Origin: Alphaproteobacteria bacterium | GTDB lineage: Bacteria; Pseudomonadota; Alphaproteobacteria; UBA6615 | DNA length: 13,160 nt | Direction of reading: 5' to 3' | NCBI GenBank assembly: GCA_017643325.1 | Contig: JAEPNS010000060.1 | Coordinates: 1 to 13,160, forward strand | In this document: positions 3-13,160 of the stretch, one piece after another | Numbering within the stretch: the first letter of the stretch is position 1 | Layout of the letters: each line of letters opens with the position of its first letter | Position numbers and translations under genes: made by a program | Notes under the pieces: generated by a model | Databases searched by the model: none | What the model was told of the DNA's origin: nothing | What the model saw: the letters and a program-made list of their open reading frames with translations, nothing else

Positions 3-767
3 CACCAGTTCTGTTTCGGCGATTCCAACGGCTGTGCGTCCGGCGGCAACCTGGAGGAGGCGATCCTGCAGGGTACGCTGGAGCTGATCGAGCGTGATGC
101 GATTTCGCAGTGGTGGTACAACCGCCTGGCGCTGCCGGCGGCCGACCTGTCGGGCGTCGACACAAAGATCGTCGACTCCATGGAGCGCTACTGCAACGAG
201 CACGGCCTGACGTTCGAGGTGCTCGACCTGACCGCCGACCTTGGCATCCCCGTGGCCGCCTGCGTCACCGCCCGCGCCAGCGACGGCGGCGCGATCACCA
301 TCGGCTTCGGGGCGCATCTCGACCCGGTCGTTGCGTCGACCCGCGCGCTCACGGAGGTCAGCCAGCTGCTGCCGTTCAACGACCAGGGCGAGTTCGCGCT
401 GGACGGGGACAAGTTCACGGCCGCGAAGGACTGGTACGACACGGCGTTCCTGGAGCAGCATCCCTACCTGAAGGCGGCGGACGCTGACCGGGCGGACCTC
501 GCGCCGGGCCTCGGGGATGTGGCGTCGATCGACCAGGCGGTGCGGTTCTGCGTCGACCGGCTGGCGGAATTCGACCTCGAGCTGATCGTGCACGACTTCG
601 ACCGCAAGGACGTGCCGCTGTCGGCGGTGCGCACCGCGGTTCCGGGCATCTGCCACTTCTGGAACCGGCGCGGCAACCCGCGGCTCTACGAGGCGCCGGT
701 GCGCGCCGGTCGGCTCGACAAGCCGCTGACCGAGGACGAACTGAACCCGATCAGCTTCTACGTCTGA
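3..767 (+). CDS. YcaO-domain protein, C-terminal ~255 aa (5' end lies outside the window)
   Basis: Frame 3 is open from position 3 and is the same frame as the listed 180-767 ORF. It translates to HQFCFGDSNGCASGGNLEEAILQGTLELIERDAISQWWYN..., the characteristic YcaO ATP-binding/active-site motif (GxASGxxxEEAxLQGxxELxERDA). GC3 bias is strong. No TfuA-like or other partner gene follows; downstream is a 246-bp noncoding gap. Confidence 0.8.
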   Translation, partial: HQFCFGDSNGCASGGNLEEAILQGTLELIERDAISQWWYNRLALPAADLSGVDTKIVDSMERYCNEHGLTFEVLDLTADLGIPVAACVTARASDGGAITIGFGAHLDPVVASTRALTEVSQLLPFNDQGEFALDGDKFTAAKDWYDTAFLEQHPYLKAADADRADLAPGLGDVASIDQAVRFCVDRLAEFDLELIVHDFDRKDVPLSAVRTAVPGICHFWNRRGNPRLYEAPVRAGRLDKPLTEDELNPISFYV

Positions 768-1253: not shown

Positions 1254-1275
1254 GCTCAAGGCCGGCTCAAGGCCG
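1254..1275. repeat. Perfect tandem 11-mer (ggctcaaggcc x2) spanning the stop codon of the SPFH gene
   Basis: Direct reading: ggctcaaggcc at 1254-1264 and again at 1265-1275. Confidence 0.5.
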
Positions 1276-2634
1276 GGTCACGACCGGCGGCGCGTTGCTC
1301 GGCCGGTTCAGGTCCATCGCCGCACCGGGCGACAGCTCGGTCCCCATGTCGGCCCCCGGGTCGCTGCCCGACATCGCGGTGGTCCCGGTCGAGAGGATCT
1401 GCTGGCTCGCTTCGGGGTTGCCGCCCTGGTCGCCCGCGATCCCGAGACGGCGCAGCGTGCGCTGCCAGCTCGATTCCCGCCGGCTGTGGGAAGAACCGGA
1501 TACGCCCGGCTGCAGGTCCTGGCCGGTCTCGCTGCGCGGCTTCTGCCCGGCGTCGCCCTGGGTCTGGCCCGGGCTGTCGGACGGGTCGAGTTGCGTCCCC
1601 GACGGGGCGGCCGGGAAGGGCTGGCGGGTCGCCGGCTGGTTCATGATGTTGCGGCCGTCGTTCGGGAAGATCGGCGGCAGGCTCTGGAAGTTCGGCAGCT
1701 GGAACTGTTCGGCCGTGACCGGCGGCACCGGCTGCGGCGTGCTCGGCACGTTGGCGATGTCGCTGCCGAGGATCAGCGGCAGCTGGTCCCTGTTGCCGCC
1801 GACGACCACCACCTTGGAGTTCGGCGACTGCGAGAGCTGCACCGTCGCCTCGATGCCGCGCCAGGTGAGCAGCGTGTCGTTCAGCGCCTCGCTGACGATC
1901 GCGTAGAAGTTCCGCAGGCCGATCGCCTGCACGCGCAGGCGCTCGGCCTCGCGCTGCTCGGCGGCGATCAGGAACTCGTACCCGGCCGCGCGCTGCTCCT
2001 GCGCGAGCTTGACGTCGATGGCCGTCGCGACCTGGACCGGCAGGCGGATCTCGGTGATCACAAGGTCGTCGATGGCGATGTCCGCCGACAGGCCGTGCTG
2101 GCGCATCCGCCGCAGGATGTTCTCCTGCAGTTCGGGGTGGTCGACCGAGTAGAGCTCGTTCGAGTTGATGTGGGTGATCTCGTCACGAATGATCGAGCGG
2201 ACCAGGGGCTCGACGATGCGGGTCGGGTAGTCGAGCCCGAGGCGCGTCAGTACGTCCGGCGTGTTCTCGGAGACCGGGCGGAAGAGGGCGGCGCCCTCGA
2301 CCGTCACCCGCATGCCCTCGGCCGACAGGGCGACGACCTCGTAGGGCAGGCGCTGGGTGCGGACCTCGAACAGGAAGATCCTGTCCCAGGGCAGCTTCGC
2401 GGTCAGGCCCTCGCCGATGGTGTCGTCGAGCACCGTGCCCCCGTCGAGCAGGCTGAAGTACACGCCGACATGGCCCGGCGGGACGGTCACGAAGACGAAG
2501 CGCCACAGCACCAGCAGCAGGAAGCCGACAAGGATCGCGATGCCGACCGCCCAGGCAACGATCTTCTCGGTCCTGCCGAACAGCGGTTGCTGCCCGTTGC
2601 GGCGCGCGGCCGTATCTGCCTGTTGCGTCGTCAT
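1267..2634 (-). CDS. SPFH/band-7 (prohibitin/HflC-like) membrane protein with a ~180-aa low-complexity Pro/Gln/Gly/Ser-rich C-terminal tail
   Basis: N-terminal TM helix (IVAWAVGIAILVGFLLLVLW) followed by a band-7-like core (VPPGHVGVYFSLL...EIRLPVQVATAIDVKLAQEQRAAGYEFLIAAEQREAE). The C-terminal third is compositionally biased and disordered-looking. The start ATG (2634-2632) overlaps the upstream ABC gene stop as ATGA. Confidence 0.75.
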   Translation of the reverse strand: MTTQQADTAARRNGQQPLFGRTEKIVAWAVGIAILVGFLLLVLWRFVFVTVPPGHVGVYFSLLDGGTVLDDTIGEGLTAKLPWDRIFLFEVRTQRLPYEVVALSAEGMRVTVEGAALFRPVSENTPDVLTRLGLDYPTRIVEPLVRSIIRDEITHINSNELYSVDHPELQENILRRMRQHGLSADIAIDDLVITEIRLPVQVATAIDVKLAQEQRAAGYEFLIAAEQREAERLRVQAIGLRNFYAIVSEALNDTLLTWRGIEATVQLSQSPNSKVVVVGGNRDQLPLILGSDIANVPSTPQPVPPVTAEQFQLPNFQSLPPIFPNDGRNIMNQPATRQPFPAAPSGTQLDPSDSPGQTQGDAGQKPRSETGQDLQPGVSGSSHSRRESSWQRTLRRLGIAGDQGGNPEASQQILSTGTTAMSGSDPGADMGTELSPGAAMDLNRPSNAPPVVTRP

Positions 2635-4274
2635 CGGGTCTCCTCCCCGTCGGCGGTGCGTTCACGCGCCTGTCCGTCGACCAGCACCAGCGTGCGGTCG
2701 GCGACATGGAAATACTGATCCTCGTGGCTGACGATCACAAGGGTTCGGCCCTCGCGTTTCCACTTCGGAAGCAGCTCGTTGTAGAAGCGTTGGCGGAATT
2801 CAGGGTCCTGGTCGGCGGCCAGCTCGTCGAGCACGAGGATCGGCCGGTTTTCCAGCAGCGCAACCGCCAGCGCAAGACGCTTGCGCTGGCCGGTCGACAG
2901 GTTCGTATTCGTGAATACGCCCTCGCGGTACTGGGTCTTGTGCGCGATGCCGAGCTCGCCGAGCAGCGCGTTGACGTCGGCCTCGGGCACATGCTCGAGG
3001 CCGTAGAGGCGGTCGAACAGGTGGAAATCGCTGAACACACCCGAGAACAGCGCGCGGTAGTCGGCGACGTTGCTCTCGTCGACCGGCACGCGGTCGCGGT
3101 AGATCATGCCGGATTCCGGCTCGTACAGCCGGGTCAGCGCCTTGACCAGCGTCGACTTGCCGCTGCCGTTGCCGCCGACGAGAAACAGCATCTCGCCGCG
3201 CTGGATATGCAGGCTCGTCGGGCCCATCGTGAAGCTGCGCGCGCCGTCCGGGTCGTAGTAGCTGTAGCGCAGGTCCTCGATGTCGATCCGCTCGAACGTC
3301 TCGCCATCCTCGGGCGCGGCTTCCGGGCGCAGCGCGTCGCGCAGGAACCTCTCGACCGTGTCCAGTTCGTCGATCGCGAAATTCGCCCGGGTGATGACGG
3401 GCACGGCTTTCAGGATCACCTCGACGACCGACAGCATGAACACGGCCACGTAGACCGACTGCACGATCACCGCCTGGTCGCCCACGAAGGGCGGCAGCAC
3501 GAACGCGATCATCGCCAGCGTCGTGTAGAAGAACAGGTAGGAGACGCTGATCCCGCGATTGATCTGGATGGCGGCCTCGACCTGGGCGTTGCGAAGCATC
3601 CCGGACTCCGGGGCGAGGTGGCTGTGCTCCAGTGAATCGCCGCGCGGATGGTTGAGCTTCACTTCCTTGAAGCCGTCGATCAGGTGCCGGAACAGCGCGT
3701 AGAAGATGCCCTGCCGCTCGCTCGACGCGGTCAGGGATTCGTGCACCTGCCGCTGCGTCAGGCGGTAGAAGAAGGCGGTCAGCACGATCAGGGTCGCGAT
3801 CACCGCGAACACCAGCGGCGAGACGAGAAGGGTGTAGAAGCCCGCCAGCACCAGCGCGCCGAAGGCCGACACGCCGTGGATCGCCATGATGGCGGCCTCA
3901 GTCAGCATCTGCGAGTTGCGGGTCAGCGTGTCGTAGACCCGGTTCGGTCCGAAGCTTTCGAACCGGCCGTAGTCCGACCGCCGGACGAGGTCGGCATAAT
4001 CCCGGCGGATGCGGTCGAGCAGGTCCTCGACGATGGCCGCCGACAGGCGCTGGCCGACGGCGTTGCCGCCGATGACGCCGAACGCCACGAGTGCGAACAA
4101 AAGGAGGCCGAACAGGTCGGGTGTTGCCGTGCCGTCGGACCCGGTCTCGGGGTCCAGCACGAAGCTGATCACGACCAGCACGCCCAGCAGGCCGAAGGTG
4201 CTGGCCATCAAAGACAGGATCAGCTTGAGGCGGCGTTCCCCCGCCGCTTCCCAGACCAGCCGAATGAACTTCAC
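2631..4274 (-). CDS. Fused permease/ATPase ABC exporter of the YojI/SyrD/PvdE 'cyclic peptide transporter' type, 547 aa
   Basis: N-terminal half carries about 6 hydrophobic TM segments. C-terminal half carries Walker A GGNGSGKST, ABC signature LSTGQRKRLALAVAL and Walker B/D-loop ILVLDELAADQDPEF, which is typical of that family. The start is GTG at 4274-4272 (plus-strand cac), preceded by GAGGA 6 nt upstream on the minus strand. Confidence 0.85.
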   Translation of the reverse strand: MKFIRLVWEAAGERRLKLILSLMASTFGLLGVLVVISFVLDPETGSDGTATPDLFGLLLFALVAFGVIGGNAVGQRLSAAIVEDLLDRIRRDYADLVRRSDYGRFESFGPNRVYDTLTRNSQMLTEAAIMAIHGVSAFGALVLAGFYTLLVSPLVFAVIATLIVLTAFFYRLTQRQVHESLTASSERQGIFYALFRHLIDGFKEVKLNHPRGDSLEHSHLAPESGMLRNAQVEAAIQINRGISVSYLFFYTTLAMIAFVLPPFVGDQAVIVQSVYVAVFMLSVVEVILKAVPVITRANFAIDELDTVERFLRDALRPEAAPEDGETFERIDIEDLRYSYYDPDGARSFTMGPTSLHIQRGEMLFLVGGNGSGKSTLVKALTRLYEPESGMIYRDRVPVDESNVADYRALFSGVFSDFHLFDRLYGLEHVPEADVNALLGELGIAHKTQYREGVFTNTNLSTGQRKRLALAVALLENRPILVLDELAADQDPEFRQRFYNELLPKWKREGRTLVIVSHEDQYFHVADRTLVLVDGQARERTADGEETR

Positions 4275-4366: not shown

Positions 4367-5968
4367 CTAGAATTTGCGGCGGAGTTCCATGCGCACGCCG
4401 GCCAGATCCTCGTCGTTCTCGCGGATGCCGTACATGGCGTCGGTGCGCAGCAGCCACCGGTCGCGGCCGAAGAGGTTCATCTGGTAGCGCAGGCCGAGCG
4501 CATACTGGTCGCCGCGCGCGGCGGACGAGCGCGACATCGGCTGGACGGTGGCGAGTTCGGCAACGATCTGCCGTGACAGGTCGAACAGGTAGCTCACGCC
4601 GATCGCCCCGCCCCACGCATCGCGCGCGGTATCGTCGAGCTTGGGAAACCCCGTCAGTGCGTCGGTCTCGAAGTTGATGCCGGTGTTCTTGAGCAGCCCG
4701 TCGCCACCGCGCGCCAGCGGCTGCGGACGGTCGAGGCCGATGAAGGCGTTGAAGTAGGGAACCAGCGTCGTCGGCAGCGACGTGACGAGCGAGTTCTCCA
4801 CCAGCAGGGCCACGCCGTCGGCGGTCTGCGTCTGGTCGCCGCCGGGATCCTGTCCGACGGCCCACACGGCGCGCACCGAGTTGGACAGCCAGCCGCCGTA
4901 GCGCTTGGTCCAGGCGCCAACGAAGTTATGGTAGCTGAAGTCGCCCTGGGGCCGGTCGCGGGTATCGTCGGTATAGCCCCAGCCCGCCTCCAGGTGGCCC
5001 TCCCGCATGTCGGCGAAGGTCACGACACCGACCACGTTGCCTGCATGGTCGGCGAGCGCGCCGTCGTCGTCCACGAGCGCCGCGCTCGAGACCTTGTCGA
5101 CACCGCCGAAGAAGGTGATGTCGTAGTTGGAGATATCCAGCCGGCGCGAGTTGCGTGCGGTGAGCGCAAACGCGCCGCCGACGAACGCGTCGTCGACCCA
5201 GATGCCGTTCTGGAAGAACATCGGAACAAGCCCGAAGGTGAACGGCAGGTCCCAGCTCGTGTATTCGTCCGACAGGCCGGTGTAGATGGCGCCGAGGTCG
5301 CCTTCGAAGAAGAAGTTCTCGACATTGGCGTCGAGGATCAGGTCGCCCTGGTCGCGGTCGTTGCCGGCGAACTCGTAGCGCGTGAACTGCCCGCCCTGGT
5401 CGACCGGCCGGAAGAAGGCGTGCAGCCGCTCCGTCGCCGTCAGTTTCAGGTCCACATCGAGGTTGAGCCGCGTGGCGACGAGCCCGGTTTCGGTGTCGCC
5501 GTTGTCGTTGAAGGCGACGGCGGTGCGCCAGTCGCCATAGACCAGAAGCTGCGGCCGGACGAGATTCTTCGCCCCGACCAGGTCATGGCCGGCGCCGATC
5601 GGGCCCTCGCGGTATTGCGGGTATCCGAACTCGAGCACCGGGCGCGGCGTGGTCACCGCGCGCTTGCCGCCGTAGATCTCGAGTTGTGCCTCGACGTCGT
5701 ATGGCTCGTCCGGGTAGGTCGGGTCCGGCCGGTAGTCTTCGGCATCGTGCGAGGAGCGCCGGACGGCGGGGTCCATCTCCGGCGGTGCCTGGTGGCCCTC
5801 ATGCTCCGGGCTGCCGGTGCGCTCCTCCTGGAGTTCCGGCGGCGGCGCGCCGCGGCGCGGGGTCTGCGCGGTCTCGATGACAGTCTGGGCGACGGCGCTG
5901 CCGGCGACAAGAAGCGCGGCGGCCAGGGCTGCGGCCGGGGCCGATCGTTTCATGGTGTCCAACATCAC
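4367..5968 (-). CDS. Putative outer-membrane beta-barrel (porin-like) protein, 533 aa. Has a Sec signal peptide and a disordered acidic/Pro/His-rich N-terminal extension.
   Basis: Signal peptide MKRSAPAAALAAALLVAGSAVAQ. The body has alternating hydrophobic/polar residues with abundant Gly/Asp/Asn/Tyr. It ends in ...RMELRRKF with a terminal Phe, typical of OM beta-barrels. The start overlaps the stop of the upstream cytochrome gene (ATGA at 5965-5968). Confidence 0.6.
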   Translation of the reverse strand: MMLDTMKRSAPAAALAAALLVAGSAVAQTVIETAQTPRRGAPPPELQEERTGSPEHEGHQAPPEMDPAVRRSSHDAEDYRPDPTYPDEPYDVEAQLEIYGGKRAVTTPRPVLEFGYPQYREGPIGAGHDLVGAKNLVRPQLLVYGDWRTAVAFNDNGDTETGLVATRLNLDVDLKLTATERLHAFFRPVDQGGQFTRYEFAGNDRDQGDLILDANVENFFFEGDLGAIYTGLSDEYTSWDLPFTFGLVPMFFQNGIWVDDAFVGGAFALTARNSRRLDISNYDITFFGGVDKVSSAALVDDDGALADHAGNVVGVVTFADMREGHLEAGWGYTDDTRDRPQGDFSYHNFVGAWTKRYGGWLSNSVRAVWAVGQDPGGDQTQTADGVALLVENSLVTSLPTTLVPYFNAFIGLDRPQPLARGGDGLLKNTGINFETDALTGFPKLDDTARDAWGGAIGVSYLFDLSRQIVAELATVQPMSRSSAARGDQYALGLRYQMNLFGRDRWLLRTDAMYGIRENDEDLAGVRMELRRKF

Positions 5969-7821
5969 TGAATCTCGAACTCGACCGCGTAGGGATGGAT
6001 GTCGATCATCCAGTCGTTGATCCGTTCCTCCATCTCGCGCGTCGCGCCGACGAAGCGCATGAAGTAGATGGGCTCGGCGCGCGAGCGCATGCGCACCTGC
6101 AGCTTGTAGGTACCGGGCTTGGTCAGCAGTTCGCCGGGCACCTCGTACTCCGCGTCACGCCAGCCGAGCGGCGGGATCGAGCGGCCCTCCATGCGCACGA
6201 AGGGCGGATGGTTCAGCACCGTCGTCGGCAGGTTGGCCGGGCGCAGGAATGGCAGCTGGTCGATGTCGAACTGCACCGGCAGGTACATTTCCCGGTCCGT
6301 GCCCTTGACGTTGGTGGTCAGGAACTTGGTCTGCAGGTTGAAGAGCTGGTCGTCATGCTCGATCGTGCCCGCCGCGACGTCGAGCGAATGCAGGTCCGCC
6401 ATGTCGCCGAGGGAGTCGACGTAGCCCGATTCCCAGATGTTCTTGCCGTCAGGGTCGAGCAGCGCGACGTTCAGCCAGATCTCGGGCTGCGCGCCCAGCG
6501 AACCCGAGGGCAGGTTGTGGCCCTTGTCGGTGTTCGTGACCCGGTAGCGGAAACTGAAATCCCGGCCGAGGCGCGGCGCGCCGTCGTCGAAGAAGGGCCC
6601 GTCGATCCGGCTGCCGTTCTCCATCACGGCGAGGCGGTCGCGGCGCTTGTCCTCCAGCAGCTTCTCGTTCTGCTGGATCACGAAGCGGGCGAACATGCGG
6701 TCATCGCGCTTGCGCCAGACGTCCGGGAAGTCCGGCGTCGCGATCTCGCCGTCACGCAGCCGGTTCTCCCACTCGGCCAGGCCCCACCCGGCGCGGTAGT
6801 CGAAGGTGAGCCATTCCTTGATCGACCAGCGCAGGCCGCGCGGATTGAACGGGAACAGGCCCGGATGCGAGATCGGGTAGCCGGGACCGTAGAAGGCGTG
6901 GTTCGAATGGCGCGCGTTCGGGTCGCCGATCACGCGGCCGTTGACGATCGCGACCGGCCACTCCGCATAGCCCTTCGCCTCGCCCGGCACCTTGCCCATG
7001 TGGCATTCCTGGCACGTGACGCCGGCCTCCGCGGCGGGGCTGTCGCGATACTGCTCCCACACGACCTCGAGCTTGATGCCGAGGTTGACGGCCACCTGGT
7101 GGCAGGACACGCAGAACTGGGATTCGCCGATCTGCTCGAACTCGATGGCGCCGAGGTGAATCTTCGCGCCGTCGGGGTCTTCCTGGGTTGCGACCTTGTA
7201 CTCGTCCGGATTGCTGAGCACGTTCTCGAGATTGTCGGCGCGCCCGATGCCGTAGACCGGCTGCTCGATCGGGCCGGGCTCGATGTGGCGCTCGCCGTTC
7301 ACCTTGCCGAATTCCGCGCCGACGCGGTGGCAGGTGACGCAGGTGATGCCCTCGCGCGCGACGATCGAGCGCTCCCACAGCGGCTTTTCGCGGGCCTCGC
7401 CGCGCTGGGTGCCGACCTGCTGGTGGCAGCGCACGCAGAACGCGCCGATCGTGCCGGACGACAGGTCGTTGATGGCCTGCTCGAACTTGTGGAACATCGG
7501 CGAGATCGACGCGTAGGCGTGGTTCGATGACGCCCACTCCGTGAAGATCTTCTGGTGGCACCGCCCGCAGGTCACGGCCGACGGAAACTCGGTCTCCTCA
7601 AACAGGGCCCGGTGCGGGTCCTTGCCCTCGGTCAGTGTCGACGCGGTCTGGTAGGCCGCCGGCACGTCGCTGCCGTCCGGCGCCGGCGCGAACCAGATCT
7701 GCGACGGGGGCAGCTCGTCCACCGTCATCGCGGTGTCGGAGATGGCCGGCGTCGCGCCGGAGAAAAGAAGGGCGGCGCCGAAGAGGAGCCAGGGGGAATT
7801 GAATTGGCGAAGCACGGGCAC
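5965..7821 (-). CDS. Pentaheme c-type cytochrome, 618 aa; periplasmic, with a heme-free C-terminal ~350 aa
   Basis: Sec-type signal (LLFGAALLFSGA). Five CXXCH motifs (CGRCH, CVRCH, CVTCH, CVSCH, CQECH) all lie in the first ~270 aa. The start is GTG at 7821-7819 (plus-strand cac), 3 nt after the stop of the upstream cytochrome gene, consistent with termination-reinitiation. Confidence 0.85.
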   Translation of the reverse strand: MPVLRQFNSPWLLFGAALLFSGATPAISDTAMTVDELPPSQIWFAPAPDGSDVPAAYQTASTLTEGKDPHRALFEETEFPSAVTCGRCHQKIFTEWASSNHAYASISPMFHKFEQAINDLSSGTIGAFCVRCHQQVGTQRGEAREKPLWERSIVAREGITCVTCHRVGAEFGKVNGERHIEPGPIEQPVYGIGRADNLENVLSNPDEYKVATQEDPDGAKIHLGAIEFEQIGESQFCVSCHQVAVNLGIKLEVVWEQYRDSPAAEAGVTCQECHMGKVPGEAKGYAEWPVAIVNGRVIGDPNARHSNHAFYGPGYPISHPGLFPFNPRGLRWSIKEWLTFDYRAGWGLAEWENRLRDGEIATPDFPDVWRKRDDRMFARFVIQQNEKLLEDKRRDRLAVMENGSRIDGPFFDDGAPRLGRDFSFRYRVTNTDKGHNLPSGSLGAQPEIWLNVALLDPDGKNIWESGYVDSLGDMADLHSLDVAAGTIEHDDQLFNLQTKFLTTNVKGTDREMYLPVQFDIDQLPFLRPANLPTTVLNHPPFVRMEGRSIPPLGWRDAEYEVPGELLTKPGTYKLQVRMRSRAEPIYFMRFVGATREMEERINDWMIDIHPYAVEFEIQ

Positions 7822-7824
7822 GTC

Positions 7825-9126
7825 CTAGTTCAGGTAATCCCGGAGTTTGGCGAGCGCGCTGCGGAAGCCGCTCGATGAGTAGCGGGTCGGGGACTCGGTG
7901 GCCTCGTAGAGGCTTTCGAGTTGCTGCGGCGCGGACCGTCCGAGGGAATCGAGCAGCGCCGCGGCGGCCATGGTGGCCTGTTCGGCGGCGCCGAAGTCGA
8001 CATAGTCCGAGGAATGATCGCGCGATACGAGGGTCGCGAGGGTTGCCTTGAGGTCGGCTTCGCGCAGCGGGTTCTCGACGAGGTTCCGGGTCATGCCGTC
8101 GACCGTGCCCGCGAGCGTGTCAGCCGCGCGCGCCACGGCCGACGCACCCTGGCGGGTGGCGCGGTGCAGGGCGCGGGTCTGTGACTTGAGCGTGTCCGCC
8201 AGCTTGGAATCGCGTCCCTCGGCGATCGCGCGGAGCATCACGAGGTTCGCGTCGTAGAGCTGCGGTTCGCCGGGACCGAGGCCGACACCGGGCTGCGGCG
8301 ACCATTTCGCGTTCGTGTAGGAGTGATGGCAGCTGCCGCACTCGAAGAAGGTGAACTCGGGGAACAGGTGGTTGCGTCCGCGCATGGACTTCGCGAGCGC
8401 GCGCAGCTGGTTGCCGGCGGCGACGGCCTGGCCGATGGCCCACAGGTTTGCCCCGTCCGTCACCGGCTTGCGCTGGCGGTAGTCGTCGTCGATGCGCACA
8501 TGGGCCGGCTGGTTTATGGAGAAGGTGTCGAGCTCGAAGGACAGGCGCGGATGGCCCGCGGCCATCAGGCGGTGCGACACGATCCGGTCCGGGTTGGCCT
8601 GGTGGCATCCGAGGCAGAGTTCCGCCCGCTTCACCGGGTCGTCGGTCGGGTACATGCCCAGCGAGACCAGTGTCGGCCGGTCGCTCAGGCCGCTGACGTG
8701 GGTGCCGAGCCAGTTCTCCGCCCCGCCGTGACAGCTCTCGCAGCCGACACCGCTGGTGATGTCGAAATTGTTGCCGCGCCGGTCTTCGGACACATTGTCC
8801 GCGTGGCACTGCAGGCAGGTCCCGGATTCATGGGCGGCGCCGATCCCCAGCCGCGCGGCGATGCGCTTTCCCCGGTCCGACTGGAGCGCCTTGTAGGCAC
8901 CGGAATGCGCGTCGTGCGTGCTCCAGACAACAAACTCGTTCTGCAACACGACCGAGTTCTGCCAAGGCTGCACCGCGCCGTGACAGGTCGAGGCGGCACA
9001 GGTCTGCACGCCGAGATGGATCGCGCCGTTGTCCTGCGCGAGCGCCTGGTTTGACGTGAACGAAAGTCCGAAAATCAGCGCCGCAACGAACAGGTCGCGA
9101 ACGGCGCGTGCCCCTTGAAAATTCAT
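7825..9126 (-). CDS. Multiheme c-type cytochrome, 433 aa: 4 canonical CXXCH plus one CX4CH, with an Ala-rich helical C-terminal half
   Basis: Signal peptide ending ...SNQALAQ. Motifs CAASTCH (CX4CH), CLQCH, CESCH, CLGCH, CGSCH. The CAASTCH motif was verified by reverse-complementing 8980-9000. First gene of the minus operon that starts at the 9127-9284 divergent region. Confidence 0.85.
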   Translation of the reverse strand: MNFQGARAVRDLFVAALIFGLSFTSNQALAQDNGAIHLGVQTCAASTCHGAVQPWQNSVVLQNEFVVWSTHDAHSGAYKALQSDRGKRIAARLGIGAAHESGTCLQCHADNVSEDRRGNNFDITSGVGCESCHGGAENWLGTHVSGLSDRPTLVSLGMYPTDDPVKRAELCLGCHQANPDRIVSHRLMAAGHPRLSFELDTFSINQPAHVRIDDDYRQRKPVTDGANLWAIGQAVAAGNQLRALAKSMRGRNHLFPEFTFFECGSCHHSYTNAKWSPQPGVGLGPGEPQLYDANLVMLRAIAEGRDSKLADTLKSQTRALHRATRQGASAVARAADTLAGTVDGMTRNLVENPLREADLKATLATLVSRDHSSDYVDFGAAEQATMAAAALLDSLGRSAPQQLESLYEATESPTRYSSSGFRSALAKLRDYLN

Positions 9127-9210
9127 TTTTGCCCCGACCGCTGCCCTGCGGCCCCTTCGCGTTCGATTTCGGAACGGTAACCCAGTATACTCAAATCAGT
9201 TTGTTGGTGT

Positions 9211-9226
9211 AGTGATTCGTATCACA
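9211..9226. promoter_or_regulatory. Candidate CRP/FNR-family operator (aGTGAttcgtaTCACa) in the divergent promoter region between the cytochrome operon and the flavo-FeS operon
   Basis: 16-mer agtgattcgtatcaca matches TGTGA-N6-TCACA with one mismatch. Its core GTGAT-N4-ATCAC is a perfect palindrome resembling the FNR box TTGAT-N4-ATCAA. It is centred ~66 bp upstream of the 9285 start and ~92 bp upstream of the 9126 start. The surrounding 9127-9284 region is the most AT-rich stretch in the locus. Confidence 0.4.
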
Positions 9227-9284
9227 CCCTTCGGCTTGGGCAGCCGGCAGGGTTATTGTAAGGGAGCGGGCCGCCTCAAGGCCC

Positions 9285-11678
9285 GTGGGTTCTGGGGAGA
9301 GTTTCGGGGGCGTGTCTCAGGTTCAGGTCGCCATCGTGGGTTCGGGTCCGGCAGGATTGAGCGCCGGCGCGCGCGCGGCCGTGCGCGGCCTGTCGCATGT
9401 CGTTCTCGAGCGGACCGAGCAGCCGAGCAACACGATCTTCCGCTTCCAGAAGGGTAAGCATGTCATGGCGCAGCCGGCGCACACGCCGCTGCGCAGCGAG
9501 ATCCCGTTCGAGGACGGACGCCGCGAGGATGTGCTCGCGGCCTGGCTTGCCCGCGCGGAAGAACTCGGGGTCAATTTCCGGTTCAATTCCGAGGTCACCG
9601 GCATCACCGGGAGCCGGGGCGATTTCGTCATTTCGCTCGCCGACGGCGAGGAGGTGCGCGCCGAGACGGTCGTGCTTGCCGTCGGACTGCAGGGCAACCT
9701 GAACAAGCTGCGCGTGCCCGGCGCCGAGCTGCCGCATGTCGGCTACCAGCTCGACGATCCCGACGAATTCGAGCATGAGCGGATCGCCGTGATCGGCGGC
9801 GGCGACGCCTCGATCGAGAACGCGCTCGCGCTGGCGGAGCACAACGAGGTCACGATCATCAACCGCTCGGACGAGTTCGCCCGGGCGAAGTCCGCCAACG
9901 AGAGCGCGATCCTCGCCGCGATCGAGTCGGGACGGATGGACGTGGCCTACAACGCGAACACGATCGCGATCGAGCCGGACACGCTGGTGCTCGAGACGCC
10001 CGAGGGCGAGGCGCGCATTCCCTGCGAGCGGATCATCGCGCGTCTCGGCGCGGCGCCGCCGCGCAAGCTGGTCGAGGCCTGCGGCGTGGAATTCCCGACG
10101 GAGGAACGCAACGCGCTGCCGGAGGTCTCCCCGCAGTACGAATCGAACGTGCCCGGGCTGTACGTCGTCGGTGCGCTCGGCGGGTTCCCGCTGATCAAGC
10201 AGGCCCTCAACCAGGGCTACGAGGTCATCGAGCATATCGTCGGGGAGGATGTGGAACCGGCGGACGCGCCGCTGCTGCGCGAGAAAATCTCCGCGGCGCA
10301 GGGCTGGGACGTCGACGGCTTCCTCGAGGCGGTGCGCACGCGTGTCCCGATCTTCGCCGAGCTCAATGCGCTGGTCCTTCGCGACACGATGCTCGAGTCC
10401 GAGGTGCACAGTTTCACGGACGGCGAGATCGTGTTCCGCCGGAACGACTACACCAACAGCCTGTATGTGGTCATCGAGGGCGCGGTGCGGATCCATCTCG
10501 ACGACGAGATGCCGCCGAAGGCGAGCGTGCAGCTGGGGCAGGGCGCCTTCTTCGGAGAGATGGGCCTGATTTCCGGCCGCCGGCGCAACGCGACCGTGTC
10601 CGCGATCGGCAACGCGCTGCTCCTCGAGGTGCCGCGGCGGCGGATGATCACCTTGCGGGCGAGCGTACCGTCGGTCCGCGAGGCGATGGACCGCGAGGCG
10701 GTGGCACGCTCGATCCAGTCGCACCTCGCGCCGGGTCTCGACCGCGACAGCATCGACGACATCGCGGCCGCGGCCACGATCCACAACTGGTCGAAGGGTC
10801 AGGTTCTGTTCAGCGAGGGCGAGGAGGGCGACAGCCTGCACCTCATCCGCCGCGGCTCGGTGCTCGTGCGCAAGAAGATCGGCGACCACGACGTCGTCCT
10901 GAACTATGTGGCGGCCGGCAACTATGTGGGCGAGATGGCGCTGGTCAGCGGCGAGCCGCGCAACGCGACCGTCGCGGCGGCCGCCGACTGCGAGACCATC
11001 CGCATCGAGCGCGACGACTTCAACCGGCTGATGGACCGCCACCCCGACCTGCGCACCGAGATCGAGCAGGTGCGCGAGGCGCGCGCCGCGATCACCGCCC
11101 GCATGGCCGAGAGCCCGGACCAGGGCAGCCTGATCGAGTTCCTGGTCGACCAGGGCGGCAAGGAAGCCACCGACATCCTGCTGATCGACGAGTCCCTGTG
11201 CGTCGGCTGCGACAACTGCGAGAAAGCCTGCGCCGGCACCCACGGCGGCATCACGCGGCTCGACCGCGAGGCGGGGCCGACCTACGCCGACATGCACGTG
11301 CCGACATCCTGCCGGCACTGCGAGCATCCGCACTGCATGAGCGACTGCCCGCCCGACGCCATCAAGCGCGCGATGGGCGGCGAGGTCTACATCACCGATG
11401 CCTGCATCGGCTGCGGCAACTGCCAGCGCAATTGCCCCTACGACGTGATCCAGATGGCGAACCCGCAGATGGGCGAGCGCGGCTGGCTCGCGAGCCTGCT
11501 CGGCGGCATGGCCGGCAAGCGCGCCGAGGTGTCCGACGGGCCCAAGCAGGCCGTGAAGTGCGACATGTGCCTCGACATCGACGGCGGCCCGGCCTGCGTG
11601 CGGGCCTGCCCGACCGGCGCGGCAATCCGCGTCCATCCGTCCGAGGTTATCGAGCTCGTGACCGGGAGCGGGCGATGA
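9285..11678 (+). CDS. Multidomain redox protein, 797 aa: FAD/NAD(P)-binding oxidoreductase (two Rossmann motifs, no CXXC), then two tandem cNMP-binding domains, then a NrfC/FdnH/PsrB-like four-cluster [4Fe-4S] ferredoxin module
   Basis: VAIVGSGPAGL (FAD GxGxxG) and VIGGGDASIENA (NAD(P) motif). Two cNMP-binding signatures: FGEMGLISGRRRNATV and VGEMALVSGEPRNATV. Four Cys clusters: CVGCDNCEKAC, CRHCEHPHCMSDCP, CIGCGNCQRNCP and CDMC...ACVRACPTGA. No signal peptide, so it is cytoplasmic. The GTG start at 9285 is uncertain; GTG at 9312 (VSQVQVAIVG...) is an alternative. Confidence 0.8.
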   Translation: MGSGESFGGVSQVQVAIVGSGPAGLSAGARAAVRGLSHVVLERTEQPSNTIFRFQKGKHVMAQPAHTPLRSEIPFEDGRREDVLAAWLARAEELGVNFRFNSEVTGITGSRGDFVISLADGEEVRAETVVLAVGLQGNLNKLRVPGAELPHVGYQLDDPDEFEHERIAVIGGGDASIENALALAEHNEVTIINRSDEFARAKSANESAILAAIESGRMDVAYNANTIAIEPDTLVLETPEGEARIPCERIIARLGAAPPRKLVEACGVEFPTEERNALPEVSPQYESNVPGLYVVGALGGFPLIKQALNQGYEVIEHIVGEDVEPADAPLLREKISAAQGWDVDGFLEAVRTRVPIFAELNALVLRDTMLESEVHSFTDGEIVFRRNDYTNSLYVVIEGAVRIHLDDEMPPKASVQLGQGAFFGEMGLISGRRRNATVSAIGNALLLEVPRRRMITLRASVPSVREAMDREAVARSIQSHLAPGLDRDSIDDIAAAATIHNWSKGQVLFSEGEEGDSLHLIRRGSVLVRKKIGDHDVVLNYVAAGNYVGEMALVSGEPRNATVAAAADCETIRIERDDFNRLMDRHPDLRTEIEQVREARAAITARMAESPDQGSLIEFLVDQGGKEATDILLIDESLCVGCDNCEKACAGTHGGITRLDREAGPTYADMHVPTSCRHCEHPHCMSDCPPDAIKRAMGGEVYITDACIGCGNCQRNCPYDVIQMANPQMGERGWLASLLGGMAGKRAEVSDGPKQAVKCDMCLDIDGGPACVRACPTGAAIRVHPSEVIELVTGSGR

Positions 11679-12511
11679 GCGCGGCACCCCTGCACAGCGG
11701 GTTCCTGACCCACAAGCGGATGATGTTCGCCTGGCTGGCGCTGCTGCTCGTGCTCGCCGTCGCCGCGGCCTGGTACTGGCAGGAGATGCTGCCGCCGTCG
11801 GCGGTGGATCTCGGGTTCAGCTACGGGCTGGGGACGCTGGCACTTGTGATCATGCTCTGGCTGACATGGTTCGGCGTGCGCAAGCGCAGCTACGCGAAAG
11901 GGGCGGGGCGGCTGAAGGCGTGGCTGTCGGCGCATGTCTATCTCGGCCTGTCGCTGGTGTTCCTCGTGCCGCTGCACGGCGGCTTCACCATCGCGCCGGA
12001 CATCCACGGGATCGCCTATGTCCTCGTGCTGGTCACGGTCTTCACCGGCCTGTTCGGGGTCGCGTTCTACGGTTTCTACCCCCGCCGGGTGACCGCGAAC
12101 CGCGAGGGACTGACCTTCGACGCGATGCTCAAGCGGATCGCGGAGATCGACATCGAGCTGCGCGGCCTGTCGACCCAGCTGTCGGAGGCGGCCAACAACA
12201 TCGTGCGCCGCGAGGCGGAATCGGGCCGCATCGGAGGCGGCGTGGGAATCCTGTTCGCCCGGCCGATCAACAAGGCACGGCGCGCACGCCAGGCGCTGCT
12301 GCGGCTCAACCTCGACTCCGACGCGGGCAACCGCGCGGCGGCGCTGCTCGAGAGCAAGGCGGCCGTGGTCGACAGGCTGCAGCGCGATATCCAGATGCGC
12401 TCGCGCCTGCGGGCGTGGCTGCTGCTCCATGTGCCGCTGTCGCTTGCGACCCTCGCGGCGGTGATCGCCCACGCGGCGGGCATGCTCATGTTCGGCCTCG
12501 GATCGGTGTAA
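11675..12511 (+). CDS. Integral membrane protein (~5 TM, 278 aa) with two His-x13-His pairs in TM helices; candidate diheme cytochrome b membrane anchor
   Basis: ATG at 11675 overlaps the upstream stop (ATGA at 11675-11678). The six-frame track's 11198 start lies inside the upstream gene and is rejected. TM3 WLSAHVYLGLSLVFLVPLHGG and TM5 LLLHVPLSLATLAAVIAHAAG each carry two His 14 residues apart, as in bis-heme b ligation of cytochrome b/FdnI-type subunits. A ~130-aa Arg/Ala-rich soluble region lies between TM4 and TM5. Confidence 0.7.
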   Translation: MSAAPLHSGFLTHKRMMFAWLALLLVLAVAAAWYWQEMLPPSAVDLGFSYGLGTLALVIMLWLTWFGVRKRSYAKGAGRLKAWLSAHVYLGLSLVFLVPLHGGFTIAPDIHGIAYVLVLVTVFTGLFGVAFYGFYPRRVTANREGLTFDAMLKRIAEIDIELRGLSTQLSEAANNIVRREAESGRIGGGVGILFARPINKARRARQALLRLNLDSDAGNRAAALLESKAAVVDRLQRDIQMRSRLRAWLLLHVPLSLATLAAVIAHAAGMLMFGLGSV

Positions 12512-12517
12512 CCGGCC

Positions 12518-13160
12518 ATGCGCGTCCTCGTCACACACCGCCTGCGCCGCACCCGCCGGGAAGGCTATGTCGAGCGCTCCGAGACGCTCGAGGGCGAAAC
12601 CATCCGGATCGGGCGCGGCTCGGATGTCGAGCTGCACCTGCCGGACGGGCGCGTCCTCCTGCACCATGCCACTCTCGCGGTCGAGAACGGCGAGCTGATG
12701 CTGCGCGCGGACCCGAGCGCGGAGATCGAGCTCGACGGCATCCCGGTGGATATCGCCCAGCTCACGCCGGGCCGCACCGTCGCCGTCGGCCCGTACGACA
12801 TTACCTGCGGCGAAGCTGTCGAGGGCCACGACGCCTGTATCAGTGTCGAGCTCGCGCGCCCCATGGGCGATGCCGAGACGATCGTGCGCGAGCGCGTCCG
12901 CACGCCCCTGCTGTCGCGTTCACGCAGCGGATGGGCGCTCGGCGGCCTGCTGGGGCTGGTGCTGCTGGTCGTCGGCGTGGGCATCCCGCTGAGCTCGTTC
13001 CTCGGCGAGCGCGAGACGCAGCGCGTCGCGACCGACGCGGGCGAGACCGACATCATGCGGATGGCGGAGAGCATGTGGCTGACCGAGCAGCTCTCGAGCG
13101 TGCATGACAACCTCGAGGCCGGCTGCCAGGCCTGCCATGTCACGCCCTTTGCGACCGTCG
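12518..13160 (+). CDS. Partial CDS (3' end outside the window): FHA-like N-terminal domain, one TM helix, then an extracytoplasmic region containing a CXXCH heme-binding motif
   Basis: It is absent from the six-frame track because there is no stop before the window end, but frame 2 is open from ATG 12518 to 13160 with strong GC3 bias. N-terminus ETIRIGRGSDVELHLPDGRVLLHHATLAVENGELMLRADPSAEIELDGIPV resembles an FHA fold (GR...SR.HA pattern). TM helix WALGGLLGLVLLVVGVGIPLSSFL. CQACH lies near the window end. Confidence 0.6.
   Translation, partial: MRVLVTHRLRRTRREGYVERSETLEGETIRIGRGSDVELHLPDGRVLLHHATLAVENGELMLRADPSAEIELDGIPVDIAQLTPGRTVAVGPYDITCGEAVEGHDACISVELARPMGDAETIVRERVRTPLLSRSRSGWALGGLLGLVLLVVGVGIPLSSFLGERETQRVATDAGETDIMRMAESMWLTEQLSSVHDNLEAGCQACHVTPFATV

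Follow-up and report, generated by a model that had tools for sequence, protein, structure and literature searches.

The window analysed here is a stretch of 13,160 nucleotides of contig JAEPNS010000060.1 (assembly GCA_017643325.1) from an alphaproteobacterium, with a G+C content of approximately 67%, and the genes at issue are those of ptd, a widespread and strongly conserved putative electron-transfer system. The original prediction, which was made from this DNA, had described a three-gene operon of two cytochromes and a barrel, and the three open reading frames (ORFs) were confirmed on the minus strand at the same coordinates, with the same sizes and heme counts. The gene ptdD ('cytA', 7825-9126) encodes a cytochrome of 433 amino acids (aa) with four CXXCH motifs and one CX4CH motif, ptdA ('cytB', 5965-7821) encodes a pentaheme cytochrome of 618 aa, and ptdB (4367-5968) encodes a predicted outer-membrane barrel of 532/533 aa; all three products carry a signal peptide. 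The genes ptdD and ptdA lie in the same frame, with the stop codon and a single further codon between them, and the stop codon of ptdA overlaps the start of ptdB (GTGATG), a packing like that of an operon. The same gene set is found on a metagenome contig in ENA (ERZ23500436), with gene calls of 433, 616 and 532 aa. The barrel on that contig (P0121), called from ATG (532 aa), is 100% identical to the window barrel, and the public gene call puts the PtdA start two codons downstream of the window ORF start. The unit is not confined to three genes, as had been supposed. Beyond an intergenic region of 158 bp (9127-9284), three more conserved genes form a divergent operon on the plus strand (9285-13160), namely the gene of a 797-aa flavo-iron-sulfur protein that joins PtdE to a module for flavin adenine dinucleotide (FAD) and reduced nicotinamide adenine dinucleotide (phosphate), NAD(P)H (9285-11678), the gene ptdF for a 278-aa membrane protein (11675-12511), and the portion of ptdG that encodes its N-terminal 214 residues (12518-13160), the gene running past the window end. 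The ptd unit in the window is made up of six genes and reaches to position 13160.

The original prediction had suggested a new family, which fails because Elbon, Stewart and Glass had already given this gene set the name ptdABCDEFG in marine bacteria in 2023 (bioRxiv 10.1101/2023.11.21.568154). In their description, PtdA is a pentaheme cytochrome with a β-sandwich, PtdB is a porin, PtdC is an FAD/NAD(P)-binding oxidoreductase, PtdD is a periplasmic tetraheme cytochrome, PtdE binds cyclic nucleotide monophosphates (cNMP) and 4Fe-4S clusters, PtdF is a ferric-reductase-like membrane protein, and PtdG is a decaheme cytochrome (bioRxiv 10.1101/2023.11.21.568154). Judged by sequence, the window genes correspond to ptdD, ptdA and ptdB plus a divergent ptd operon, all of one system: the porin gene ptdB lies beside ptdA, and the published PtdD, PtdE and PtdF each have their counterpart. 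The finding is therefore the rediscovery of a described, functionally uncharacterised system, and literature searches for later work on ptd or UBA11136 returned nothing beyond the 2023 preprint. On the other hand, the window departs from the published cluster in several respects. Its genes are divided between two divergent operons; there is no separate gene for PtdC, a TrxR-like FAD domain being fused to PtdE; the PtdE part contains four Fe-S cluster motifs and not two; PtdD has an extra conserved CX4CH motif; and PtdG, of which the window shows 214 residues and the first CXXCH, begins with an FHA domain and not with a Cys-rich N-terminus.

A set of 87 loci was assembled from other genomes and metagenomes, and the window proteins were used as queries against it; 37 of the loci have at least 8 kb on both sides (full-flank loci). 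Synteny of the genes elsewhere had been set as a test of the original prediction, and the PtdA and PtdB genes proved to be adjacent in 86 of the 87 loci, the single miss lying at a contig end; PtdB is immediately downstream of PtdA in 83 loci and upstream in 3. Such regularity is far beyond what chance would produce. PtdD was found in 70 of the 87 loci, at variable positions, and the flavo/Fe-S protein in 64. Among the 37 full-flank loci, PtdD was found in 34, the flavo/Fe-S protein in 32, PtdF in 25, and the PtdG N-terminus in 19. The last number is low because the query is short and the family is divergent; in whole-protein clustering of 88 sequences (the 87 loci and the window), the PtdG decaheme was recovered in 63. 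The genes occur in at least four kinds of arrangement (divergent or on a single strand, with the small cytochrome before or after the PtdA-PtdB pair), and this varied order argues for functional coupling rather than inherited synteny. PtdA is the most conserved part of the system, with a median identity to the window protein of 68%, followed by PtdB (53%), the flavoprotein (49%), PtdD (40%) and PtdF (33%). All-against-all clustering of the ORFs of the 88 sequences revealed no further conserved gene other than an FNR-like PtdC (20 loci) and a glutamate dehydrogenase that is lineage-specific. The remaining clusters are shadow ORFs of high-GC DNA, and the ptd loci yielded no additional conserved family of cytochromes. 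In a collection with one genome per species, relatives of PtdA turned up in at least 570 stretches, and their hosts are mainly Alpha-, Beta- and Gammaproteobacteria of sea water, lakes, groundwater and soil. Two metagenome-assembled genomes, Legionellales SP289 (L017/L018) and Geminicoccaceae IP29b_bin.180 (L068/L086), each contain two separate PtdA-PtdB loci, which suggests duplication or the binning of two strains.

The 797-aa protein consists of a TrxR/YpdA-like FAD/NAD(P)H domain without the redox CxxC, two cNMP-binding domains (Pfam, NCBIfam), and four CX2CX2-4CX3C motifs of the 4Fe-4S type. No transmembrane segments were found in it, and it is predicted to be located in the cytoplasm. 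From its domains, it appears to cover the published PtdE (cNMP and Fe-S) plus an FAD/NAD(P)H module, which the 2023 description counts separately as PtdC. In the Kordiimonadales genome IMCC3096, the genes follow the order D-E-F-G-A-B-C on a single strand, PtdE has the cNMP and Fe-S domains with the FAD domain absent, and PtdC combines an FNR-like NAD-binding part with a 2Fe-2S domain and is anchored in the membrane. Such an FNR-like plus 2Fe-2S gene follows the barrel gene in 20 loci (within the subset L049-L087; for example, L061 13335-14615), and in all 20 of these the pyr-redox domain is undetectable. Nineteen of them give weak flavoprotein matches (27-35% identity), and the twentieth locus is incomplete; among the full-flank loci, no weak match starts before query residue 356. 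A fused or adjacent FAD domain is present in 22 of the 37 full-flank loci. The TrxR-like FAD domain and the FNR-like plus 2Fe-2S protein thus appear to be mutually exclusive, and from the text of the 2023 paper the published PtdC is assignable to either type. The chief reason for taking NAD(P)H as the source of the electrons is that two unrelated NAD(P)H-flavin modules occur in the same position, and we infer from this that electrons flow outward. In a Halofilum genome (L003), the flavo/cNMP/Fe-S protein is called as three genes of 467, 140 and 174 aa, and a gene for a high-potential iron-sulfur protein (7852-8184) is found directly upstream of the ptd cytochrome genes.

The passage of electrons across the inner membrane would fall to PtdF. 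Hydropathy indicates approximately five transmembrane helices in this protein, and two pairs of His residues are conserved among 43 homologues, H87/H101 on one transmembrane helix and H252/H266 on another, with a spacing of 14 residues within each pair. A 14-residue spacing is the signature of two stacked transmembrane b hemes, as in cytochrome b and the domains of NADPH oxidases (NOX) and ferric reductases (FRE). PtdF is therefore a candidate di-heme b transmembrane electron carrier; in Pfam it gives a weak Ni_hydr_CYTB/cytochrome b561 match (E 0.027). The part of PtdG within the window comprises a cytoplasmic FHA-like domain (Pfam Yop-YscD_cpl/FHA), one transmembrane helix and the first CXXCH. 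A close homologue in locus L006 has a full length of 578 aa, with 10 CXXCH motifs and one transmembrane segment at 137-166, and 10 CXXCH motifs are likewise present in 56 of the 63 PtdG homologues. The cytoplasmic N-terminus of PtdG differs with the type of cluster, being FHA-like in the window type (12518-12800) and Cys-rich in the other (YERP...CGR...C.RGP...CGG...C; L061 7839-8000, L067 4169-4350); from its Cys pattern, the latter might bind metal.

A flavoprotein coupled to a di-heme-b membrane protein is the logic of NOX and FRE, here split over several polypeptides, and it raises an alternative in which the electrons of NAD(P)H would serve, on the cell surface or in the outer periplasm, to make superoxide or peroxide from O2 or to reduce complexes of Fe(III) so that the iron can be taken up. 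In line with this, the FNR-like variant weakly matches a ferric reductase NAD-binding domain, most hosts are aerobic Proteobacteria of marine and fresh waters, and control of the flavoprotein by cyclic nucleotides would be in keeping with a process that is costly and regulated. However, the acceptor of NOX and FRE takes its electrons directly from the outer b heme, which leaves 20 further c hemes and the highly conserved PtdA unexplained; in addition, no recurring iron-uptake gene was found in the loci with annotated neighbours, and there is no direct evidence for this alternative, which we regard as improbable. It is just as much of a long shot that ptd is a widespread bacterial counterpart of NOX and ferric reductases that acts across the whole envelope, that is, an NAD(P)H oxidase that is gated by cyclic nucleotides, works independently of quinones and supplies the outer membrane with electrons. 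If this were true, it would explain the NADH-dependent production of extracellular superoxide or the reductive acquisition of iron by marine heterotrophs, and we know of no enzymatic source for either process in these organisms.

In the periplasmic cytochromes, the heme motifs are placed as follows: PtdD contains CX4CH (CAASTCH) at residue 43 and CXXCH at residues 104, 129, 171 and 263, and PtdA contains CXXCH at residues 85, 129, 161, 237 and 270. Every Cys of PtdD and all 10 Cys of PtdA lie within these motifs, and the C-terminal parts of both proteins are heme-free, as the original prediction had it; moreover, because no Cys remains outside the heme motifs, there is no lipobox, and neither protein can be a lipoprotein. 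The heme domain of PtdD matches Pfam Cytochrome_C554 (E 7e-9), and its profile matches Nitrosomonas c554 (1bvb, E 4.8e-7). Cytochrome c554 represents a type of carrier that works together with multiheme enzymes. CX4CH occurs in at least 90% of one set of 55 homologues and without exception in a set of 34, and this conservation makes a fifth heme plausible, such that the 'tetraheme' PtdD of the window lineage would probably bind five hemes. In Kordiimonadales, PtdD has four CXXCH motifs and no CX4CH. The C-terminal part of PtdD is α-helical and poorly conserved, with E382 and Q383 as its only invariant residues, and its profile matches are limited to designed helical repeat proteins. Against the DmsE-family decaheme model of NCBIfam, PtdA and PtdD score 21-29 bits, compared to a cut-off of 192. 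In some gammaproteobacterial loci, a tandem pair of c554-like cytochromes, both paralogues of PtdD and each with four CXXCH motifs, lies downstream of the barrel (for example, 13217-14638 and 14943-16298 in L045).

PtdA is laid out as a five-heme helical domain (approximately residues 65-400), a long helix (372-402) and an Ig-like β-sandwich (404-617), within which an insert at 498-546 is conserved and unmodelled. The predicted local distance difference test score (pLDDT) of its structural model is 65, and the heme regions are poor, as expected for a model built without hemes. More than 3,000 matches were scored in the PtdA family search, and among the best 120 of these the identity is 67-85%. 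Invariant residues are numerous in the heme-free half, for example, in GHNLPSGSLGAQPEIW and NHPPF.RMEGRSIPP. A profile search against PDB sequences gave a match at E 5e-6, and the stretches shown pair four of the five heme motifs. The best structural relative of PtdA is a protein of a purple sulfur bacterium; the low-potential pentaheme c552 of Thermochromatium tepidum (PDB 5ze8) shares 17% identity with PtdA and is shorter (435 vs 618 aa). This c552 presumably contains an Ig-like domain as well. A Foldseek search of the whole PDB with the PtdA model returned nothing at E <= 0.001, the matches being generic Ig-like ones, with the MccSep entry absent. A c552 homologue was also noted by the ptd authors (bioRxiv 10.1101/2023.11.21.568154).

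Comparison with MccSep, which is identical to ExtKL, may help to place PtdA. MccSep is reported to be a tetrameric pentaheme cytochrome whose cap is helical and whose stem is Ig-like, and it reduces polysulfide via a heme-ligating Cys and a selenocysteine (Sec), with C239 and U325 as active-site partners (bioRxiv 10.1101/2025.11.18.688581). In Geobacter sulfurreducens, the ExtKL gene adjoins that of the porin-like ExtI, which has been described with 21 transmembrane segments, and the cluster was first classed as an electron conduit (PMC6148476). Geobacter ExtHIJKL/MccSep is thus a precedent for clusters of this kind proving to be enzymes. Similarly, PtdA is a periplasmic pentaheme cytochrome with a heme cap and an Ig-like β-sandwich, it has a porin-like neighbour, and there is no surface cytochrome in the cluster; it also matches the ExtKL model of NCBIfam weakly (E 1e-8, 34 bits vs a cut-off of 250). 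On the other hand, PtdA lacks both the heme-ligating Cys and a Sec or Cys in the stem, PtdB has 18 predicted strands compared to the 21 segments of ExtI, and an NAD(P)H flavoprotein, a b-type membrane protein and a decaheme are all absent from ExtHIJKL. Since PtdA has no free Cys, it is not an MccSep, and MccSep-type catalysis by PtdA was ruled out, as the defining residues are absent. With respect to NrfA, the match of PtdA to PF02335 (Cytochrom_C552) reaches 21.0 bits against a cut-off of 24.1 and covers 32 residues only, and CXXCK, the active-site heme motif of NrfA, was not found in PtdA; NrfA-type catalysis was ruled out on the absence of this motif. PtdA is a candidate catalytic subunit.

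The relatives of the two cytochromes also bear on the direction of electron flow. PtdA could take electrons from a donor in the periplasm or outside the cell (for example, reduced sulfur, Fe(II) or hydroxylamine) and send them inward to the cytoplasmic flavoprotein, given that PtdD resembles c554, the carrier away from hydroxylamine oxidoreductase, that the best structural relative of PtdA comes from a purple sulfur bacterium, and that ptd genes have been reported in nitrite oxidisers (bioRxiv 10.1101/2023.11.21.568154). However, the reduction of NAD(P)+ via c and b hemes would be uphill while an energy-coupling subunit is absent, a link to quinone or a terminal oxidase is not encoded, and two different NAD(P)H-type flavin modules in the same position fit electron input; we therefore consider an inward flow very improbable.

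PtdB has no Cys and ends in RRKF. In its AlphaFold2 model (44 sequences, mean pLDDT 81), the protein is a β-barrel with 18 strands between residues 136 and 531, as counted from DSSP elements, and the connections alternate between long and short, as expected with a periplasmic N-terminus. Ahead of the predicted barrel lie a disordered stretch rich in Pro and Glu (27-80) and a conserved segment (81-135). In the fold comparison, the model scores 26.7 with OpdQ (OprD/Occ family), 26.0 with OccAB3, 25.9 with Campylobacter MOMP, 24.0 with AlgE, 23.1 with ChiP, 21.0 with maltoporin, and 12.5 with MtrB (6r2q_B); PtdB is therefore structurally far nearer to OprD/AlgE-type channels than to MtrB. The top matches are all 18-strand channels. 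At the level of sequence, PtdB has zero matches at E <= 1 in Pfam and NCBIfam and no match among PDB sequences. Pfam presumably includes a model of the MtrB/PioB barrel, in which case this null result covers the MtrB/PioB family. As the identity of PtdB to the 18-strand channels is 7-12%, its likeness to OprD/Occ, AlgE, ChiP and maltoporin, although strong in the modelled fold, assigns it to a fold class and not to a sequence family. Assignment of the barrel to a substrate-specific porin family, which the original prediction had named as an outcome that would count against it, is consequently borne out for the fold and not for the sequence family. Unlike OprD/Occ-type channels, PtdB has an N-terminal periplasmic extension of approximately 110 residues and a genetic tie to cytochromes.

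The conserved loops of PtdB are consistent with a channel. The longest connection, L7 (413-449), has a conservation score of 0.83, compared to 0.68 in the strands, and the short loop L3 has a score of 0.91. In OprD, the constriction is formed by inward-folded L3 and L7. By analogy, L7 of PtdB, which is presumably extracellular, may line the pore. In a subgroup of PtdB sequences (P0150-P0176), the proteins are approximately 820-845 aa long, compared to approximately 530 aa, and an N-terminal Cds6_C NTF2-like domain (PF24125) stands before the barrel; most of these are metagenome sequences, and one is labelled Gammaproteobacteria.

These features of the barrel are also of importance for the question of whether ptd is a true porin-cytochrome conduit, in which the heme chain would end at or in PtdB and pass electrons to extracellular Fe(III)/Mn(IV) minerals or chelates. 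Like MtrAB, PioAB and MtoAB, ptd places a multiheme cytochrome gene beside a barrel gene and includes a decaheme, and the strict adjacency of PtdA and PtdB means that the barrel gene is invariably next to that of a multiheme cytochrome. In addition, some 20 c-type hemes, including those of the inner-membrane-anchored decaheme, could span the periplasm, and the PtdA insert 498-546 and the PtdB segment 81-135, both conserved, could form a contact. A porin-cytochrome complex for extracellular electron transfer is one proposal of the ptd authors, a role in nitrogen cycling being the other; in an oxygen-deficient zone they found high ptdAB transcription by Alphaproteobacteria, and they pointed out that iron is reduced at the depth where these transcripts occur (bioRxiv 10.1101/2023.11.21.568154). 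However, the model of PtdB has 18 strands and not approximately 26 as in the MtrB/PioB family, to which it does not belong by sequence, and the cytochromes encoded beside the barrel carry five hemes and are not soluble decahemes of the MtrA family. By the usual barrel-radius formula, the Cα radius is estimated at approximately 16-17 Å for 18 strands and 23-24 Å for 26, so an MtrA-like cytochrome could not be sheathed by the smaller barrel. Unlike the Pcc systems (OmaB/OmbB/OmcB), the ptd loci contain no outer-surface lipoprotein multiheme cytochrome, and, unlike Cyc2, PtdB has no heme motif fused to the barrel. The misfit to MtrAB, PioAB and Pcc that had been read from protein sizes is therefore upheld by strand number, by the failure to match Pfam and NCBIfam, and by the nearness of the fold to OprD/AlgE. 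A conduit is the main rival reading, though in our view doubtful. The original prediction had posed the right alternatives, namely a conduit or a periplasmic enzyme with a dedicated porin, and the evidence leans to the second.

Based on the results presented above, we give a probability of roughly 45% to ptd being a periplasmic reductase that has a channel of its own and is fed by NAD(P)H independently of quinones. According to this mechanism, the cytoplasmic flavoprotein would oxidise NAD(P)H and may be gated by its two cNMP-binding domains. Electrons would move from its FAD through the four Fe-S clusters to the two b hemes of PtdF and thereby across the inner membrane, and from PtdF to the inner-membrane-anchored decaheme PtdG and the c554-like PtdD. 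Finally, they would reach PtdA, the putative terminal reductase of a small solute, and PtdB would serve as an 18-strand OprD/AlgE-like channel through which the solute enters or the product leaves. A PtdA reductase with a PtdB channel is preferred because of the 18-strand channel fold, the conserved L7 and the enzyme-like conservation of PtdA, as well as the c554-like partner, the absence of a surface cytochrome and the MccSep precedent. By analogy, the best guess for the substrate of PtdA is a small inorganic sulfur or nitrogen species. No quinone-linked subunit and no terminal-oxidase link are encoded in the ptd gene set. Since the path would bypass quinones, and since an outward flow of NAD(P)H electrons would dissipate membrane potential, the role of the system would be detoxifying, assimilatory or redox-balancing rather than respiratory.

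Several points weigh against a periplasmic reductase. A path of approximately 20 c-type hemes from the inner membrane to PtdA is long for a soluble enzyme and looks more like extracellular electron transfer. PtdA has neither the catalytic Cys/Sec of MccSep nor the CXXCK of NrfA, and its heme domain is modelled without hemes at a pLDDT of approximately 40-70, at which an open or unusually ligated heme is not demonstrable. General porins usually suffice for small anions, and a dedicated channel is thus left unexplained. Finally, the function of ptd 'remains completely unknown' according to the paper that named it (bioRxiv 10.1101/2023.11.21.568154).

As far as can be judged from its genes, ptd would have every part needed to move cytoplasmic NAD(P)H electrons to the outer membrane without quinones, and whether it is a wire or an enzyme with a channel changes how metagenomic "porin-cytochrome" matches are interpreted. 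Compared to the published description, the new elements are the modelled 18-strand OprD/AlgE fold class of PtdB, the His signature of a putative di-heme b protein in PtdF, the conserved fifth heme motif in PtdD, the two NAD(P)H modules that seem to exclude each other, a conserved CRP-type site in the promoter region, and the existence of cultured carriers, namely Solimonas terrae KIS83-12, Kordiimonadales IMCC3096, Minwuia thermotolerans and Ferrovibrio.

The CRP-type site is an inverted repeat, AGTGATTCGTATCACA, at 9211-9226 in the divergent intergenic region, and it is the sole match in the window to TGTGA-N6-TCACA with at most one mismatch. Loci L005-L008 and L010 have CRP-type matches with 1-2 mismatches in the corresponding intergenic region. 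A search of the ptd intergenic region for a sigma-70 consensus promoter gave no match. Together with the cNMP-binding domains of the flavoprotein, this putative site hints that ptd may be under cyclic-nucleotide control at two levels.

With regard to the rest of the window, three antisense ORFs lie opposite the real genes, at 9276-11687 (minus strand, 803 aa), 5995-7530 (plus strand, 511 aa) and 4928-5971 (plus strand, 347 aa). They are shadows that arise from the high G+C content, and the 803-aa ORF has no Pfam match. A terminator scan of the window gave weak matches only, all but one of them within coding sequence, and transcriptional read-through from ptdB into the adjoining ABC transporter gene is possible. 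The ABC transporter (2631-4274, minus strand) scores 295.5 bits with TIGR01194, the NCBIfam model of cyclic-peptide exporters, against a cut-off of 286.2. An SPFH/Band7 protein is encoded at 1267-2634 (minus strand), and the C-terminal part of a YcaO cyclodehydratase, which runs off the window start, at 3-767 (plus strand). In the 87 loci, the Band7 and YcaO queries had no match, and the ABC exporter query had matches of 25-27% identity in 3 loci only; the three genes were accordingly rejected as parts of ptd, as they are not conserved beside ptd genes. This YcaO/Band7/ABC stretch looks like a neighbourhood of the type associated with ribosomally synthesized and post-translationally modified peptides, unrelated to ptd.

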